This document shows positions 30,760-39,474 of a stretch of DNA of 43,375 nucleotides, in pieces. Numbering within the stretch: position 1 is the stretch's first letter; every line of letters begins with the position of its first letter. Where the stretch lies: the sequence record SRR20825019_2807. The stretch is one strand, 5' to 3'. Position numbers and translations under genes: made by a program. A model generated the notes under the pieces. The model did not search any database, was not told where the DNA came from, and saw only the letters and a list, made by a program, of their open reading frames with translations.

Positions 30760-30810
30760 TCTGGATTCTCATCGGATCACCAAAACTCCCATGGCACCCA
30801 ACCCTCCACG

Positions 30811-32220
30811 TCAACTATTAGTTGACGTGTCGGATTTATCTCCCGCCGTTGGCGCGGTTTCCTCGAGGCGCTCACGGATCAGCCCGACGAGTTCGTTTTC
30901 GATTTCGAGAAACGCCGGATCGCCTGTGCGATTGGTCATTTCCAACGGATCGCTTGCTAAATCATAGAGCTCGGAACCACCGACGGCATCGACGATCAGT
31001 TTATGCCCGCGGTAGATCACCGCGTAACGCGCCACACTCGGGCCATTGTTTCCGGTGAATTGGGTAAAGACCGGCACTTCGGCGAGCGTTTCCTCTCCGC
31101 GTAAAGCAGATCCGAGTGATCGGCCGTCGAGGCCAGCGGGCACCGCTTGCCCGGCCAACTCCAGCACCGTTGGCATCAGATCGAGATGCGAAACGGGCGT
31201 TTCGATTTGCTTGCCAGCGACCACCTTAGGACCGCGCACAATCAGTGGCACGCGAGACGCCTGATCGTAGAGTTCCATTTTCTGATACATCGAATGTTGC
31301 CCGAGATGATCGCCATGATCGGAAGTGAACACGACGAGCGTATCCTCCGCCACACCGTGCTGATCGAGTGACGCGAGCAAGCGGCCGACCAATTCATCCA
31401 CCAAATGAGTCAGCGCGAGATGAGCGGACCACGCACGGCGCCACTCCGTCTCGTCCACTCCTGCCGCGAGTTGGGCCGCGACCCCGTCGCGACGATTTTC
31501 TGGTTCGCCCAGCGCAATCCGCCCCACATTGGACGGCAGCTCGATTTGATCCGGTGGAAACAAATCCATCAATTCCGGCGCCACATAAAACGGCGGATGC
31601 GGTGCCCAGAGATTCACGAACAGTGCGAATGGTTGGTCCTGTCCAGACAGTTCGCCAATCGCTTCCTCCGCACGGCGCACAAAAAATTCATCGCGAAAAT
31701 CCTCTCGATCGAACGGCCAGGCGGCCGCATGTGGAGTCGAGTAATCATTGAGCAGCAGATTGTCGCCCACCTGTTCACGGACCTGCTTGCGAAACGGCCC
31801 CGAAGCTTCGAGCGCCGCCATGTCGCACCCTTTCGACTTTAAATGTTTCCCGTGATCTTCCTCATCGAGCCACACCGAAAAATCGGCCCGATCACGCAAT
31901 CGCTTACCCAAACGCACATGGTCCATGCCCGTATGACCAAGCGTGTAACCCGCCGCCGCAAGCTGTTCGTGAATCGTCGTAACTTCATTGGCGTGGGAGC
32001 CGGTCCAATCGTTCCAGGTCACGCCATTTTTCGCAGGACGGAGTCCGGTGGCGAGGGCCGCGCGCGCGGGCACACAAAGCGGACATGTCGAATACGCACT
32101 GGTAAAGCGAGCGCCTTGAGCAGCCAACGCATTCAAGTGAGGTGTCACTTCCCTGCCCGCCTGAGTCGCTCCGATACTGTCTGCCCGTTGGTGATCCGAG
32201 GTAATAAAAAGCAGATTCAT
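30811..32220 (-). CDS. Cys-type sulfatase (choline-sulfatase-like)
   Basis: 'NLLFITSDHQRAD', CVPARAALATG, 'PHPP', 'TSDHGD'; ATG 32220 preferred. Confidence 0.9.
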   Translation of the reverse strand: MNLLFITSDHQRADSIGATQAGREVTPHLNALAAQGARFTSAYSTCPLCVPARAALATGLRPAKNGVTWNDWTGSHANEVTTIHEQLAAAGYTLGHTGMDHVRLGKRLRDRADFSVWLDEEDHGKHLKSKGCDMAALEASGPFRKQVREQVGDNLLLNDYSTPHAAAWPFDREDFRDEFFVRRAEEAIGELSGQDQPFALFVNLWAPHPPFYVAPELMDLFPPDQIELPSNVGRIALGEPENRRDGVAAQLAAGVDETEWRRAWSAHLALTHLVDELVGRLLASLDQHGVAEDTLVVFTSDHGDHLGQHSMYQKMELYDQASRVPLIVRGPKVVAGKQIETPVSHLDLMPTVLELAGQAVPAGLDGRSLGSALRGEETLAEVPVFTQFTGNNGPSVARYAVIYRGHKLIVDAVGGSELYDLASDPLEMTNRTGDPAFLEIENELVGLIRERLEETAPTAGDKSDTSTNS

Positions 32221-32345: not shown

Positions 32346-34112
32346 ATGCTGTTTCTCATTCGCAAACTCGGAAAACTGCTTCGCGGCAATGTCACTCCAT
32401 TTCAAATCATCGCGGGCTGCCTGCTCGGCGCGATGCTCGGGTTTATGCCCGGCTTCTCCCACGCCCCCGGTCTGATCGCCGTGCTCGCATTCGCCCTGCT
32501 CGTGATCAATGCGAATTTGCTACTCGCCGGATTTGTCGGTCTCGTCGCAAAACTCCTCTCAGTGCTCCTGTTACCCGTTTCCTATTTCGCCGGGCGAGTC
32601 TTGCTCGATGGCCCGACGGAAGGTCTCTTTCGCGGCCTCATCAATGCGCCGGTCTTCGCGCTCTTCGGATTCGAAAACTATGTCGCCACCGGCGGGCTTT
32701 TGATCGGCGGCCTCTTCGGCCTGATCGTCGGAATTTTTATCGCCCGTAGCATCACCGCGTTTCGCACGAAAATGGCGGGACTCAACGAGAGCTCTCCCCG
32801 CTATCAGGAAATGATCGAAAAAAAATGGATGAAACTCGGCACTTTCATCTTCGTCGGCGGTGGGGCGAAAAAACCTGATTACGCTGCCCTCCTCGCCAAG
32901 AAAACCGGGAATCCCGTCCGCGTGTTGGGAGTCGTGCTGGTCACCCTGTGCCTCGTGTTGGTCGGCATCGTCTATCAATTCTTCTCCGGCACTATAGTGA
33001 CCGCCACACTGCGCAGCGGCATGGAACAAGCCCTGGGTGCGACTGTGGATCTGGAAAGCGCGGAGATCGATCTCAAGGCTGGCCGAATGACACTCAACGG
33101 CATCGCCGCAGCCGATCCCAATGCGCTCGGGACCGATATTTTCCGCGCCGAAAAAATCGAAGCCGATATCAGCGGGGCCAATCTTCTGCGCAAACGTCTG
33201 CAGATCGATCGCGTGGTGGTCACCGGTGCGACCAGTGGCGAAAAGAGGAAGGTCCCCGGCAAACGAACCGTCGCCGCACCGAAAGCCTCCGCGCCCATCC
33301 CCGTGCCCATTCCGGATACCAAGAGTATTGATGACTATTTGAATAACGCGAAGGTCTGGCGTGAACGCTTGGCACAGGCGAAGAAATGGATGGATAAGAT
33401 CAGCGGACCGGCCGACGACGAATCCACCGAAGAGGGCAAGGAATCCCTCGAAGAGAGGCTTCGCCGGATCGCCGAGGCCCAGGGTTACACCAACCTCAAC
33501 GCCTCGCATCTGATCGAAGGCGCGCCCACCCTCCAGATCTCCGAGATTCAGGCCAACAAGGTCACGGTCAGCCAACTCCCCGGAGAAGTCCTCAGCTTCG
33601 TGGCTCACAATCTCTCAACCCAGCCTGGCCTCTCACAAGGCTCGCCGAAAATCGACATCACCAGCGCGAGCGACAAAGTCGCGTTCCAAGCCGACTTCGG
33701 CGGAATCAGTGCAGGTGGCGGCGACAACGCCCTGTCCTTTCATTATCGCGATCTACCGGTTGATCAGATCATGAGCAGTCTCAAATCAACCACGACCACC
33801 CTCAAGGGTGGCACCATCGATCTGGCCGCCGACGGACGCTACTTCAGCACGACGGGTGCGATCGACATTCCTCTCAAAGCCACCCTGCACGACACCACGC
33901 TTTCGCTCGGCGGACGCGACACCAAGGTCTCTTCGTTCACGTTGCCGATTGGTCTTTCCGGTCAACTCGACAATCCCCGGATCAAAGTGGATGCCAAGTC
34001 CCTCGGCGATCTCGCCCTTAAAGCCGGCAAGGATGCGCTTAAGGAAAAAGCCGCCGAACAACTCAAAGGAAAAGCCGGCGGCCTCTTCGATAAACTCCTC
34101 GGTGGCGAGTAA
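32346..34112 (+). CDS. Membrane protein: DUF2062/TIGR03546-like N-terminus plus AsmA/TIGR03545-like region
   Basis: 'TPFQI..G..LGAMLGFMP' hydrophobic N-terminus, then 'EQALGATVDL', 'LLRKRLQIDRV', 'G.LDNPRI'. Confidence 0.6.
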   Translation: MLFLIRKLGKLLRGNVTPFQIIAGCLLGAMLGFMPGFSHAPGLIAVLAFALLVINANLLLAGFVGLVAKLLSVLLLPVSYFAGRVLLDGPTEGLFRGLINAPVFALFGFENYVATGGLLIGGLFGLIVGIFIARSITAFRTKMAGLNESSPRYQEMIEKKWMKLGTFIFVGGGAKKPDYAALLAKKTGNPVRVLGVVLVTLCLVLVGIVYQFFSGTIVTATLRSGMEQALGATVDLESAEIDLKAGRMTLNGIAAADPNALGTDIFRAEKIEADISGANLLRKRLQIDRVVVTGATSGEKRKVPGKRTVAAPKASAPIPVPIPDTKSIDDYLNNAKVWRERLAQAKKWMDKISGPADDESTEEGKESLEERLRRIAEAQGYTNLNASHLIEGAPTLQISEIQANKVTVSQLPGEVLSFVAHNLSTQPGLSQGSPKIDITSASDKVAFQADFGGISAGGGDNALSFHYRDLPVDQIMSSLKSTTTTLKGGTIDLAADGRYFSTTGAIDIPLKATLHDTTLSLGGRDTKVSSFTLPIGLSGQLDNPRIKVDAKSLGDLALKAGKDALKEKAAEQLKGKAGGLFDKLLGGE

Positions 34113-34130: not shown

Positions 34131-34728
34131 CGAATGTCACCTATTAAGTGACATTCGTTATTTTCTCGTCCTAAAATGAGCGTTTGTGATCAGATCTAGA
34201 TGTCACTTAATAGGTGACATGTCTTCTTATCCTCACACCCCCGGGCAGCTTCGCCTACCTTTGGCTTTCGCTGATTTACTGGCCGAATCCGCCGAACTTA
34301 TCGTCAAAGAATCCGTCAAGGCCTACCGCATCGTGAAGAACTCCCGGCGTGAAACACACGGCCAAACATTGAGACCGGGACGACAAACTCCGCTTTGGAA
34401 CGCCCTGCGGGCAGAACTACAGCCCCATCTCCACAAATATGGAGCCCAAGCCAATTTGGGGCGACTCCTCGGATTGCCCCGCCAGCGCGTGAATGCCTAT
34501 GTGACCGGCGGTGGGCAAATGCCCGACGCTGAACGAACCCTCCAACTGCTGGCATGGCTGATGGCCGAGCAAAAGAAATCCGAAGCGACTAACATCCACT
34601 AAATTCCACTCCGTCGGAACTACCCAATGTCACCTATTAAGTGACATCTCTATTTTTGACCGAGGGCTCCAGTGGTCAATTGATTACAGGAACATGGGAG
34701 CCGAATGTCACTTAATAGGTGACATTCG
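34131..34728. repeat. Four identical 21-bp palindromic sites in nested inverted arrangement
   Basis: ATGTCACCTATTAAGTGACAT at 34134-34154 (F), 34200-34220 (R), 34627-34647 (F), 34705-34725 (R); outer pair is a perfect 27-bp IR, inner pair a perfect 23-bp IR. Confidence 0.97.
34219..34602 (+). CDS. Small protein with a C-terminal XRE/Cro-like helix-turn-helix
   Basis: 'GAQANLGRLLGLPRQRVNAYVTGGGQMPDAERTLQLLAWL' fits the Cro/C1 pattern; ATG 34219 overlaps palindrome 2. Confidence 0.7.
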   Translation: MSSYPHTPGQLRLPLAFADLLAESAELIVKESVKAYRIVKNSRRETHGQTLRPGRQTPLWNALRAELQPHLHKYGAQANLGRLLGLPRQRVNAYVTGGGQMPDAERTLQLLAWLMAEQKKSEATNIH

Positions 34729-34752: not shown

Positions 34753-35547
34753 TCACTTGTCGTATTGTGAAAGGTTATTACTACCGATCATCGATTGAAT
34801 CTCGGCAATGTAGGCCGAACCACGCTCGGAATACGACATGAGGCCATTGGCCAGGGCATAACCGGAAATCGTGGCGTTCCGGGAGCGCAGACTCGCACGA
34901 ACATTCCGCAGCTGACGATAGCTGTTCTGCGTATTGAGATTGTGCACATAGGCTTCGACCGAAGCGCGAGGTGTCGGATAGACAGCGACGGTAAACGTAT
35001 GCCCCCGCTTGCGTCTTTTCGGCACCATGCCACTGCCATCGTTGGTATGCATGCCGAACAGGTTATTGCCCTTACGCGCAAACCGTGAACTGCCCCAGCC
35101 CGATTCGTTGGCAGCCTGCGCCAGCACGAGCGAAGGCGCGATGATATCCACCCGCTTAAGCACCATCGTCGCAAAATCCTCATCCACTTGATCAGGGATA
35201 TCCTCAAAATCATATTCCTCGGCCACCCGCTTCAAAAACCGATCATCAAAGAAACCCGCCGAATCACTATCGCTAAGCTGTTTGCTGATTTTCAGAAGTC
35301 GTTCGCGATCCTTCAGGATATCTCCGTTTACGTCCTCAATCAGGGGCAATAGATAACCGAAAAATGCCTCTTTCTTATCCGTGACATTCGCATGATCCGA
35401 AAAATCGGGTAAGGATTCCGTCGTCAGGTTTCGCCATCCCAACCAGACCCCCAAGACAACGATAACCGCCAAGAGAATCCGGCGGCCCTGCGGAGACCGC
35501 CACAACTGTCTCGCCCATGCGAGAATCGTTGTGGTCGGGGCGTTCAT
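34753..35547 (-). CDS. Bax-like GH73 glucosaminidase domain protein
   Basis: 'KKEAFFGYLLP', 'RVDIIAPSLVLAQAANESGWGSSRFARKGNNLFG', 'YSERGSAY'. Confidence 0.9.
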   Translation of the reverse strand: MNAPTTTILAWARQLWRSPQGRRILLAVIVVLGVWLGWRNLTTESLPDFSDHANVTDKKEAFFGYLLPLIEDVNGDILKDRERLLKISKQLSDSDSAGFFDDRFLKRVAEEYDFEDIPDQVDEDFATMVLKRVDIIAPSLVLAQAANESGWGSSRFARKGNNLFGMHTNDGSGMVPKRRKRGHTFTVAVYPTPRASVEAYVHNLNTQNSYRQLRNVRASLRSRNATISGYALANGLMSYSERGSAYIAEIQSMIGSNNLSQYDK

Positions 35548-37913: not shown

Positions 37914-39400
37914 GCGCCGCCGTCAACCTCAAAGAAAAAGTGCGCGCGCTGCCGAACAAGCCCGGCGTGTATTTAATGAAGGACCGCCTCGGTCGGATCA
38001 TCTACGTCGGCAAGGCCAAGATGCTCAAAAAGCGCGTGTCGTCCTATTTCCAACGCGGTCGCGCACGAGCGATCGCGCAGCCGAAAATCCGCGCGCTCAT
38101 CAGCCACATCCATGATTTCGACATCATCGAAGTGAAGTCCGAGCCCGAAGCCCTGCTGCTCGAAAGCAATCTGATCAAACAGTGGAAGCCCCGCTACAAT
38201 ACCGATTTCACCGATGATAAACGCTTCCTCATCGTGCGCGTCGATCTCTCGCAGGAACTGCCGCGCTTCACCCTCACACGGATCCGCAAGGATCAACGCT
38301 CACGCTACTTCGGCCCGTTTCCGCATTCGAGTCTGCTCCGCAAAACCCTGTCGCAGATGCGCCAGAAATTCGGCGTGCTCCTCGCCGACGGCACGCCGCA
38401 AAAACAACCCGACGGACGCTGGCAACTCTACGACGACGTGCGCCAGGAAATTTACGGTCACGACAATCTCGTTTCCACCACCGGCTATCGACATCGCGTT
38501 GATGAAGCCTGCGAGTTTCTCCAGGGAAAGTCGCACGAATGGCTCGAGAGTCTGCGTCACGAAATGCAGACCGCCGCAACCAAGCTCCAATTCGAAAAAG
38601 CCGCCGAACTCCGCGATGTGATCGCCGCGCTCGAAGGCACTTTGCACCGCACGCGCAAATTCGAACGCGATCAGACGCTTCTGCGCAGCGATCAAGAAGC
38701 CCTCACCACCCTCGAAAAGGAACTGAAACTCAACGCACTTCCCCACAACATAGAGTGCTTTGATATCTCCCACATCTCCGGCACCTTCGTCGTCGCTTCG
38801 ATGGTGCATTTCACCGAAGGACGTCCCGACAAAGACCAATACCGTCGCTTCAAAATCAAGAGCTTCATCGGCAACGATGATTACCGCGCCATGGAGGAAG
38901 TCGTCGGTCGACGCTATCGACGGCTCGCCGTCGAAAACAAACCGATGCCCGATCTCGTGGTGATCGATGGTGGCCGCGGCCAGATCGCCGCCGCCCTCAA
39001 GGCGTTTATCGCCATCGGAGTCGAACCGCCCGCCCTCATCGGCCTCGCGAAGAAACACGAAACGATCATCTTCCCCGACGAACGCGATCCCCTGAATCTC
39101 TCGATCAACGATCCCGGACTGAATCTACTCCAACGCCTGCGCGACGAAGCCCATCGGTTCGCCAATACTTACAACGCCGATCTGCGTTCCAAGAAGCTCC
39201 GCGAAAGCATCCTCGATGATTTTCCCGGCCTCGGCCCCAAACGTCGCACCGCCCTGCTCGCCCACTTCGGTTCCATCGACAAACTACGTCAAGCGAGCGC
39301 CCTCGAAATCGCCGACACCGAAGGCATCGGCCTAAAATTCGCCAGCGAACTCCACACCTTCCTCCACGCCAAAAACACATCGGCCGCGCCGCAAGAGTAA
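37910..39400 (+). CDS. uvrC: Excinuclease ABC subunit C
   Basis: GIY-YIG 'PGVYLMKD..IIYVGKAK', UVR 'FEKAAELRD', 'IECFDISH', 'IDGGRGQ', 'RDEAHRFA', HhH 'GLGPKRR'. Confidence 0.97.
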   Translation: MSAAVNLKEKVRALPNKPGVYLMKDRLGRIIYVGKAKMLKKRVSSYFQRGRARAIAQPKIRALISHIHDFDIIEVKSEPEALLLESNLIKQWKPRYNTDFTDDKRFLIVRVDLSQELPRFTLTRIRKDQRSRYFGPFPHSSLLRKTLSQMRQKFGVLLADGTPQKQPDGRWQLYDDVRQEIYGHDNLVSTTGYRHRVDEACEFLQGKSHEWLESLRHEMQTAATKLQFEKAAELRDVIAALEGTLHRTRKFERDQTLLRSDQEALTTLEKELKLNALPHNIECFDISHISGTFVVASMVHFTEGRPDKDQYRRFKIKSFIGNDDYRAMEEVVGRRYRRLAVENKPMPDLVVIDGGRGQIAAALKAFIAIGVEPPALIGLAKKHETIIFPDERDPLNLSINDPGLNLLQRLRDEAHRFANTYNADLRSKKLRESILDDFPGLGPKRRTALLAHFGSIDKLRQASALEIADTEGIGLKFASELHTFLHAKNTSAAPQE

Positions 39401-39474
39401 CCCAATAGGTTACTTTCCCTCTTGGCGACACCTCGGGTTCTCATGACTGAAGTGTAACCAGGCTGGTTACACTT
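39396..39474. promoter_or_regulatory. Pair of GTAAC-N7-GTTAC palindromes related to the 21-bp sites
   Basis: AGTAACCCAATAGGTTACT (39396-39414) and perfect AAGTGTAACCAG-G-CTGGTTACACTT (39450-39474). Confidence 0.6.

Follow-up and report, generated by a model that had tools for sequence, protein, structure and literature searches.

A palindrome-flanked helix-turn-helix gene as the probable home locus of an Opitutaceae-restricted protein-site family with dispersed sites

We analysed a 43,375-nt stretch of DNA (sequence record SRR20825019_2807; hereafter the window) in which a small cassette at positions 34131-34728 encloses the gene of a 127-aa helix-turn-helix (HTH) protein between four copies of a palindromic site. 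Our analysis suggests that this cassette is probably the home locus of one member of a protein family restricted to the Opitutaceae/Opitutales, and that the dispersed sites of the family form an architectural set and not a promoter regulon. Binding and autoregulation of the cognate protein-site pair are strongly inferred from sequence comparison and structural modelling, while the role of the dispersed copies is either architectural or semi-selfish in the manner of REPIN-RAYT repeats. No description of the family or the motif was found in the open-access literature searched.

The 21-mer ATGTCACCTATTAAGTGACAT occurs four times in the window without mismatch, in the order forward (F), reverse (R), gene, F, R, where orientation denotes the strand of the 21-mer; the chance expectation is 0.00 matches (mean of 100 dinucleotide-preserving shuffles). 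The outer sites (1 and 4) form a perfect 27-nt inverted repeat (34131-34157/34702-34728) and the inner sites (2 and 3) a perfect 23-nt inverted repeat (34198-34220/34627-34649). A first-pass annotation of the sequence had described the four identical copies and their order, both perfect inverted repeats, and the overlap of site 2 with the ATG of the gene; all three observations were confirmed, the first by exact matching together with the shuffles and the last through the final two bases of the site. The cassette comprises the following elements:

34131..34157 (21-mer at 34134-34154, plus strand): site 1, orientation F, a perfect 27-bp palindrome consisting of CGA, the 21-mer and TCG
34148..34177, plus strand: candidate sigma-70-type promoter of the HTH gene, GTGACA, 18 nt, TAAAAT, proposed from consensus likeness only (10 of 12 matches)
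34200..34220, minus strand: site 2, orientation R, the 21-mer, its final two bases supplying the AT of the start codon; distance to site 1, 66 bp
34219..34602, plus strand: HTH gene, an open reading frame (ORF) of 127 aa
34627..34647, plus strand: site 3, orientation F, the 21-mer, 25 nt past the HTH stop codon; 427 bp from site 2
34702..34728 (21-mer at 34705-34725, minus strand): site 4, orientation R, a perfect 27-bp palindrome; 78 bp from site 3

The right arm of site 1, GTGACA, doubles as the candidate -35 element, and an in-frame GTG at 34186 provides an alternative start that would give a protein of 138 aa. Use of the palindrome centre as the -10 element of a leaderless mRNA was considered and dropped as the main model, as this register gives T, not A, at -11. 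A search of the 43 kb for TGTCAC-N7-GTGACA with up to 2 mismatches returned just two extra weak matches and no further good copy. The first-pass annotation had likened the sites to those of tyrosine recombinases, in which inverted arms surround an invariant asymmetric core, but the central 7 bp of the 21-mer proved to be near-palindromic, with the dyad broken by a C/A pair beside the arms and by the unavoidable middle base. In relatives, the core positions are often fully symmetric bar the middle base (TTAWTAA, CTAWTAG, GTAWTAC). Because the core is quasi-palindromic, the analogy with recombinase sites is not supported, and the site design is that of a 21-27 bp dyad composed of arms, TAWTA and arms, with the centre flanked by Y/R.

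A scan of a genome collection confirmed 134 relatives of the protein, of which 80 loci were kept, all from Opitutaceae or Verrucomicrobiota. The literal pattern TGTNAC-N7-GTNACA was found at 38 of these 80 loci, and a de novo palindrome scan revealed that other loci share the site design with different arms. The flanks were then described with a census model of 8-nt arms, with at most 1 mismatch, around an [ACT]A[AT]T[AGT] centre, in zones of 200 nt on each side of the gene. Among the 78 loci with both flanks, a site was present upstream at 61, downstream at 47 and on both sides at 44, versus 1 of 272 control zones placed 1.6-2.5 kb away from the gene. Under a stricter model, an upstream site starts exactly at ATG-19, as in the window, at 15 of 81 loci, with others at -20 to -49; no flanking palindrome was detected at L051/L114, L166 and L169 under the models used. 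Read on the coding strand, the central base is A at 29 of 35 loci in the upstream site nearest the start codon and T at 22 of 35 in the downstream site.

Across these loci the centre of the site stays TAWTA or a near variant, while the arms fall into classes: TGTCACy (that of the window), TGACAC, TGTCAAC, TGTCATC, TGTCATA, CGTCAC, TGTAACC, AGTAACC, AGTCCG, GAACCG, GTTCG, TGGCG and TTTTGCG. When arm classes were compared with the predicted recognition helices, P87 together with R90 was paired with C at arm position 7 at 42 of 42 loci, and D87 together with T, A or Q at position 90 was paired with A at arm position 7 at 12 of 13. Likewise, Q92 was paired with A at arm position 4 at all five loci that carry it, and N or H at position 92 with T at arm position 4 at 53 of 53. 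The same pairings recur between genomes: helix H[KV]SRVTE with AGTCCG arms in G007 and G010, helix PRQR..D with TGTAACC arms in G001, G005 and G007, and helix PKQR with AGTAACC arms in G001 and G010. This recurrence and the one-to-one mapping of helix to arms are what direct reading of bases by the helix would predict. The flanks of homologous genes thus carry palindromes that co-vary with the recognition helix, a possibility raised in the first-pass annotation, and together these results support its suggestion of an undescribed protein-site module. Sites with hybrid arms also occur (TGTCATC/GTTGACA, TGACAC/GTGACA and TGTCAC/GTGTCA, at the downstream site of L040, at G001:C3:307744 and at G006:C1:3577176). 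As the predicted dimer interface is invariant in the family, heterodimers of co-resident paralogues might read such hybrid-arm sites.

The 127-aa protein itself has no strong match to a described family. Its best Pfam match is YdaS_toxin (PF15943) over residues 72-109, with an E-value of 0.014 and 15.7 bits versus a cut-off of 30; no family was matched in NCBIfam, nothing relevant was returned by a profile search of the PDB, no defence family was matched in PADLOC, and PHROGs gave one weak 'transcriptional regulator' match (E 0.04). A homologue in the protein atlas (P0004) led to small clusters that are unnamed or of Cro/CII/HTH_3 type, with scores of at most 0.96, which we treat as leads only. 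A word-indexed search returned 412 relatives, none with a precomputed Pfam domain, and those that are named all belong to Opitutaceae, Opitutae, Lacunisphaera or Verrucomicrobiota. When 1.84 billion representatives were searched exhaustively with a profile, 286 clusters were returned at E of at most 0.001, nearly all of 100-170 aa, with a few longer, distant relatives reaching HTH_3 through an extra N-terminal domain. The C-terminal two-thirds of the protein are strongly conserved across relatives and the N-terminal 45 residues are variable. Two motifs, TLRPG..TPLWN and MPDAERTLQLL, are invariant in the family, and the family-invariant residues include no His-hydrophobic-His (HUH) motif, no invariant Tyr and no other catalytic motif.

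An AlphaFold2 model of the protein has a mean predicted local distance difference test (pLDDT) score of 65.8, with values of 75-83 over the HTH part, and consists of a variable N-terminal helix at about residues 9-35 followed by helices at 58-71, 76-84, 88-97 (the recognition helix) and 104-125. The best Foldseek match was not significant (E 0.68), and the top rows were all XRE-type (HipB, cI, C-protein and P22 c2 domains). VIA-align, which is independent of Foldseek, gave a best Z of 8.0 to POU-like HNF-1A (root-mean-square deviation 3.1 over 85 residues), Z 6.9 to the N-terminal domain of lambda cI and Z 5-6.5 to many XRE proteins, where values of Z below 8 can reflect a common helical arrangement. 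These data point to a predicted lambda-repressor-like HTH fold. The Cro/XRE-like HTH named in the first-pass annotation is in line with the predicted fold, the top rows of Foldseek being of XRE type and the best of VIA-align POU-like, lambda cI or XRE domains, but no HTH family was matched above the sequence cut-off. Modelled as a homodimer, the protein scored 0.61 versus 0.00 for the best control, a mark reached by 21 of 30 proteins solved as pairs and by 0 of 23 solved as single chains; the runs agreed in at least 85% of contacts, with partner pLDDT of at least 61. Since XRE dimers have already been solved, this pass may partly reflect likeness to known structures. The modelled interface is formed by residues 21, 51, 56-60, 63 and 100-112; its stretches at 51-63 and 100-112 are the two invariant motifs. 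At the comparative and predicted level, then, the protein behaves as a dimer on a dyad-symmetric operator, with the recognition helix reading the arms.

Where sites of the same class are neighbours, their spacings cluster at 41-49, 54-59, 64-68, 75-81 and 86-91 bp. The spacing of these doublets has a period of 11.2 bp in 67 unique pairs (jitter-null p = 0.0002) and of 10.9 bp in a 53-pair subset (p = 0.0068), and in 50 of the 67 pairs one member is the inverse of the other, the central base included. G007 has six doublets, five of the GTAACC class and one of the AGTCCG class, with a uniform spacing of exactly 54 bp but unrelated 37-nt spacers; the spacers are unrelated also in G001 and at the home locus of the window. 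Fixed geometry combined with free spacers is the signature of proteins touching on adjacent double-stranded DNA (dsDNA) sites and not of a copied unit. Both spacings in the window, 66 bp between sites 1 and 2 and 78 bp between sites 3 and 4, fall inside populated clusters. Shared spacers were seen only at L032/L111 (G003:C22, ~100.3-103.0 kb), where thirteen sites lie within 8 kb, some of them in tandem arrays of 3-4; the likeness of the 26-nt spacers in the L032 arrays points to local tandem duplication beside the HTH gene.

The extent of the palindrome differs between classes. The dispersed unit in G001 is a 25-bp palindrome with nothing beyond it common to the copies, while the TGTCATA class of Oleiharenicola lentus (G006) extends to a palindrome of ~45 nt, several copies of which have compensating changes in both outer arms, and the TGACACT class includes two compensated flank variants. 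Sites 1-3 of the window pass a loose terminator consensus scan, with 7-10 pairs and T-rich tails; the tails after the G001 copies are not consistently T-rich.

Scanning of whole genomes revealed that the sites are not confined to the neighbourhood of the gene. Sites of the window class number 23 (G001), 6 (G002), 39, 9 and 31 (G005) in the genomes of five relatives, a wider version of the pattern gave 79, 27, 7, 2 and 0 across genomes, and reversed-pattern controls gave 0 in every genome scanned. The copies differ little from one another: of the sites found when up to 1 mismatch is permitted, 21 of 23 in G001 and 24 of 31 in G005 are exact. Each genome encodes 1-5 paralogues, each flanked by its own class of site, as illustrated by the third paralogue of O. 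lentus, which sits between two TGTCATA sites, and each class is represented by 2-45 sites per genome. GTAACC-class sites number 25, 5, 11 and 13 in four genomes with the cognate gene and 0 in G006, which is without it; for the AGTCCG class, two genomes with the gene have 8 and 29 sites, and three that lack it have none. Thus, among the genomes compared, a site class occurs only where its cognate gene is present. One TGTAACC-class paralogue (L164, G005:C191:7825-8067) contains an in-frame TAA and is a possible pseudogene; it is still flanked by sites, and G005 keeps 5 GTAACC sites. In the sample from which the window probably derives, one contig of 43,375 nt is identical to the window, and at least 7 further contigs of similar depth (17.6-20.7 versus 21.5) hold the 25-27-nt site, and some of these carry doublets with 22-24-nt spacers.

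At the home locus, site 1 lies 22 nt past the stop codon of an upstream AsmA/TIGR03545-like gene and site 4 lies ~25 nt beyond the stop codon of a convergent bax-like glucosaminidase gene (34753-35547, minus strand). The upstream gene (32346-34112, 588 aa) is an apparent fusion of a TIGR03546/DUF2062-like membrane part (residues 4-144) and a TIGR03545/AsmA/DUF748-like part (residues 191-306), both family matches falling under curated cut-offs. The gene order asmA-like, HTH, bax-like, 141-aa gene, cinA, uvrC is common to the window and four loci (L001-L004) whose proteins are 71-84% identical to that of the window, and differs at the other 76 loci; the gene order kept by these orthologues indicates vertical descent. 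Among these five loci, sites 1 and 2 are retained in 5 of 5, site 3 in 4 of 5 and site 4 in 2 of 5 (the window and L003). Spacers and flanks diverge while sites 1 and 2 stay, with a single change in the centre of site 2 in L002, and the maintenance of these two sites amid a diverging spacer is, as judged from the alignment, a sign of purifying selection at the home locus.

Elsewhere in the genomes, the sites adjoin genes of no shared function. The 15 dispersed clusters in G001 lie next to unrelated housekeeping genes, including nadA/nadC, holA, ppnP, purB, ilvA, alkZ, ada-alkA, fabF and glgP, among others; 5 are in tandem regions, ~7 in convergent regions (5 with Pfam support on both sides) and 1-2 in divergent regions, with the rest ambiguous, and the sites often start 0-30 nt past a stop codon. 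Of 44 clusters in O. lentus, 39 are intergenic (19 tandem, 12 convergent and 8 divergent) and 5 are scored as 'genic' on crude gene calls, a split of 19/12/8 that resembles the background of 66 tandem, 30 convergent and 23 divergent regions. The idea of a 3'-end element, suggested by the positions 0-30 nt past stop codons and the ~7 of 15 convergent clusters in G001, failed in G006, where the split is like background. The sites thus occupy intergenic DNA irrespective of whether it would bear a promoter, which argues against a classical regulon.

On the chromosome scale the placement of the sites is uneven. The chromosome of G007 is complete; its 17 loci, which represent three classes, and its four paralogue genes all fall between 3.37 Mb and, through 0, 1.47 Mb; the empty arc of 1.90 Mb (p = 0.0035) is centred at 2.42 Mb, at the sampled + to - switch of GC skew. 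On contig C1 of O. lentus, 50 loci lie near the - to + switch at ~2.05 Mb, at a distance of 0.71 Mb versus 0.95 Mb expected for a uniform spread (p ~0.001). Placement is thus non-uniform and centred on one replication pole in G007 and on G006 C1. The usual GC-skew rule would make the site-rich pole the origin. The parB genes, by comparison, lie 0.13 Mb (G007) and 0.10 Mb (O. lentus C2) from the switch opposite the site-rich pole, dnaA of O. lentus lies 0.38 Mb from that opposite switch, and gene-strand bias gives mixed signals on polarity. Either GC skew has an unusual polarity in this lineage or parB sits at an unusual place, and an origin-centred distribution, which we considered, is not claimed given parB and dnaA near the opposite switch and the mixed strand bias. 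The parB and switch positions fall at 2.315 Mb and ~2.45 Mb on G007:C1 and at 0.70-0.80 Mb on G006:C2, where the + to - switch would be the terminus by the usual rule; dnaA of G007 (3.685 Mb) lies more than 1 Mb from either skew switch. Mapping of sites relative to origin and terminus, proposed in the first-pass annotation and carried out here on relatives, revealed an uneven spread on two chromosomes but gave conflicting indications, from skew on one side and parB and dnaA on the other, as to which pole is involved. The DNA-looping or chromosome-organising role proposed there is similarly plausible in view of the phased doublets and uneven spread, with the same conflict over the pole.

Taken together, our analysis suggests the following model. 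The protein would bind dsDNA as a symmetric dimer in which the recognition helix (residues 87-96) reads the arms of a 21-27 bp palindrome and the TLRPG..TPLWN and MPDAERTLQLL motifs form the predicted dimer interface. With site 2 lying over the start codon and over the 5' end or promoter region of the gene, the protein would repress its own expression. Sites 1 and 2, and likewise sites 3 and 4, may act as cooperative doublets, each holding two dimers on one face of the helix, with the gene-bearing ~430-570 bp possibly looped out between the two doublets. In the relatives and in contigs of the window's sample, the same site is present at tens of other intergenic places as well, and a genome has 1-5 orthogonal paralogue-site pairs, with each site class found only alongside its cognate gene. 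The family would then act as a sequence-specific architectural protein, serving as an insulator, a roadblock or a domain organiser. We favour an architectural role over a regulon because the genes on either side of the sites are unrelated housekeeping genes, in some cases convergent, and because the placement of the sites is uneven.

Several observations weigh against this architectural model. The case for binding is built on comparison and prediction; the AlphaFold model is moderate, no single structural or sequence match is significant by itself, and the counts of helix-arm covariation are not phylogenetically independent. Under the census model, 17 of 78 loci are without an upstream site and 31 of 78 without a downstream one. 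The centre of the palindrome makes a poor -10 element for a leaderless start, and the candidate promoter at 34148..34177 is weakly conserved, its -10 element in particular being poorly kept in L001-L004. The ~45-nt TGTCATA palindrome exceeds the likely footprint of a dimer, which points to a hairpin or cruciform. Contig C2 of O. lentus still holds 10 sites, and GC skew disagrees with the positions of parB and dnaA on origin/terminus polarity. The G001 site after a SASA-esterase gene has no counterpart in the orthologous region of the window, and site counts differ four-fold between close relatives (23 in G001 versus 6 in G002). Selection on binding sites alone does not readily account for the near-identity of copies of 21-45 bp together with such fast gain and loss; some way of copying the sites seems to be required, and the architectural model supplies none.

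A copying process is at the centre of the first of the alternatives, in which the sites are semi-selfish, hairpin-forming intergenic repeats of the REP (repetitive extragenic palindromic)/REPIN type and the HTH gene is a single-copy, vertically inherited 'keeper' that recruits or guides a host enzyme. We regard this as unlikely, at perhaps a fifth of the weight of belief, and it overlaps the architectural model in that the protein still binds the sites, differing in why the copies exist. It would account for a gene flanked by its own repeat, a class present only with its cognate gene, several orthogonal families together in one genome, near-identical copies in numbers ranging from 2 to 45 per class, copies beside unrelated genes that turn over between relatives, vertical descent as read from the kept gene order of orthologues, compensatory changes in the 45-nt palindromes and doublets that are mostly mutually inverted (50 of 67). 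REPIN-RAYT systems are described with these same traits in the abstracts of PMC3733652 and of other work on REPINs and RAYTs. However, the present protein is an HTH protein without HUH, Tyr or other catalytic motif and without a Y1_Tnp match, the doublets are not copied as units, with spacers unrelated even where spacing is fixed and phased, and copy numbers are far under those of typical REP families. Homologues of Y1 transposases were found in 5 of 5 genomes searched, but the site was found at 0 of 6 loci fetched; compared with the tags described in PMC3733652, the sites are without an unpaired GTAG or CGTC. The first-pass annotation had entertained an abundant REP unrelated to the gene, and of this the REP-like dispersal stands, but the sites are strictly tied to the gene. 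Y1-transposase-like (PF01797) matches number 1-4 per genome in five Opitutaceae (L183-L188), and 4 of the 6 that were fetched lie in long frames (316-339 aa).

It is less probable still, roughly a one-in-ten prospect, that the protein is an ordinary autoregulated transcription factor and the palindromes are promoter operators of its regulon. In its favour, the predicted fold is XRE-like, site 2 overlaps the start codon and site 1 the candidate -35 element; some dispersed sites are in divergent or tandem intergenic DNA, the usual setting of promoters, and a few neighbours (ada/alkA, alkZ, holA, uvrC, cinA) are DNA-repair genes. Against this, 12 of the 39 intergenic clusters in G006 and ~7 of 15 in G001 are convergent, as are sites 3 and 4 of the window and a further site at 30808, the neighbours have no common function, and the sites are far less degenerate than usual operators.

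That the palindromes act as RNA hairpins, whether as intrinsic terminators, stabilisers of mRNA 3' ends or 5' hairpins that hide the start codon, with the link to the HTH gene secondary, we consider very improbable. Sites 1, 2 and 3 are terminator-like, with 7-10 pairs and T-rich tails, many sites lie 0-30 nt past a stop codon, and the outer arms show compensatory changes, but the arms co-vary with the recognition helix of a protein, doublet spacing tracks the DNA helical repeat, sites occur in divergent regions too, T-tracts are inconsistent after the G001 copies, and the stems are short and AT-rich. Scarcely credible, finally, is a cassette inverted or excised in trans or a non-autonomous transposon with palindromic ends, as the first-pass annotation had proposed on the strength of a gene enclosed by perfect nested inverted repeats, a feature to which we can add that, at 18 of 35 loci, the sites nearest the gene on its two sides are inverted relative to each other down to the central base: the window and L001-L004 agree in orientation and in flanking genes, the sole contig spanning the locus is collinear, with neither an inverted nor a deleted form among the contigs (contigs drop rare variants) and apparent 'joints' are doublets at other loci, the scan of 35 window ORFs revealed no recombinase or transposase and no target duplication is visible, in agreement with that annotation, the family was not found in plasmid, phage or viral collections, and the core is quasi-symmetric.

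The window also holds palindromes of other classes, outside the cassette:

30808..30828, no strand assigned: second-class site, a perfect 21-bp palindrome, ACGTCAAC-TATTA-GTTGACGT
39395..39415, no strand assigned: third-class site of the AGTAACC class, GAGTAACC-CAATA-GGTTACTT, with 1 arm mismatch
39450..39474, no strand assigned: variant-centre palindrome of 25 bp, AAGTGTAACC-AGGCT-GGTTACACTT, with a non-TAWTA centre

The site at 30808 lies between convergent purC-like and sulfatase genes and overlaps the TGA stop codon of the sulfatase gene; its different class implies that a second paralogue is probably encoded elsewhere in this genome. The site at 39395 overlaps the uvrC stop codon, and cognate AGTAACC-class paralogues are present in G001 and G010. 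The palindrome at 39450 lies 57 bp from it, centre to centre, and as the orthologous spot in G001 (L098:968-992) has the same palindrome with the centre AGCCT, this variant-centre site is conserved.

If confirmed, these pairs would represent a new kind of chromosomal system in which orthogonal HTH 'readers' are matched to near-invariant palindromic 'addresses', arranged in phased doublets around one pole. This larger claim is tentative, and we hold it to be possible but well short of probable; the system could be an HTH counterpart of REPIN-RAYT or a multi-channel chromosome-domain or insulator system, and the latter would have no described bacterial equivalent. Whatever the role of the dispersed copies, the family provides a natural protein-DNA recognition code, with at least 10 arm classes and matching helix changes on a small scaffold with an invariant dimer interface, that is usable for the study of how HTH specificity evolves and as a source of orthogonal DNA-binding parts. 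In a phylum that has been little studied, the dispersed sites could serve as sequence-specific insulators, roadblocks or domain organisers; if they are instead palindromic repeats maintained alongside a non-transposase protein, the REPIN-RAYT concept would widen. Some 290 clusters so far labelled 'hypothetical proteins' acquire a definition as a family and a predicted ligand, and the cultured hosts O. lentus and Oleiharenicola sp. Vm1 make both ideas directly testable.

Among known systems, YdaS/Cro-like proteins (PF15943) are similar in giving a weak HTH match, and YdaS of prophage CP-933P is among the structural matches (Z 5.7); however, the score is under the 30-bit cut-off, and the N-terminal helix and the TLRPG..TPLWN and MPDAERTL motifs are specific to the present family. 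Lambda-type repressors and the controller (C) proteins of restriction-modification (R-M) systems resemble the family in their XRE fold and symmetric dimer, both predicted here, in palindromes over their own promoter and start region, and in phased pairs on both sides of the gene; lambda cI loops between OL and OR. Unlike these regulators, the present family has no prophage or R-M context and no Pfam HTH model above cut-off, and it combines near-invariant sites with tens of extra copies and several orthogonal paralogues per chromosome. The chromosome organisers ParB/parS, Noc, SlmA and MatP use palindromic sites bound by a dimer, and share with the family tens of short palindromes per chromosome that have no tie to the function of their neighbours, are unevenly distributed and lie in part beside the organiser's own gene, whereas here the best matches are of XRE type, not ParB, TetR or ribbon-helix-helix (RHH), paralogues are orthogonal, and sites turn over fast. 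REPIN-RAYT systems, as described in the abstracts cited above, differ from the family in that here an HTH protein without catalytic motifs takes the place of the transposase, doublet spacers are unrelated, no GTAG/CGTC tag is present, copy numbers are 10 to 100 times lower, and spacing follows the DNA helical repeat. By the same descriptions they share with it a single-copy, vertically inherited gene flanked by its own palindromes, private classes of repeat with several families in one genome, inverted doublets and varying population sizes, and they are the closest analogy to the family.

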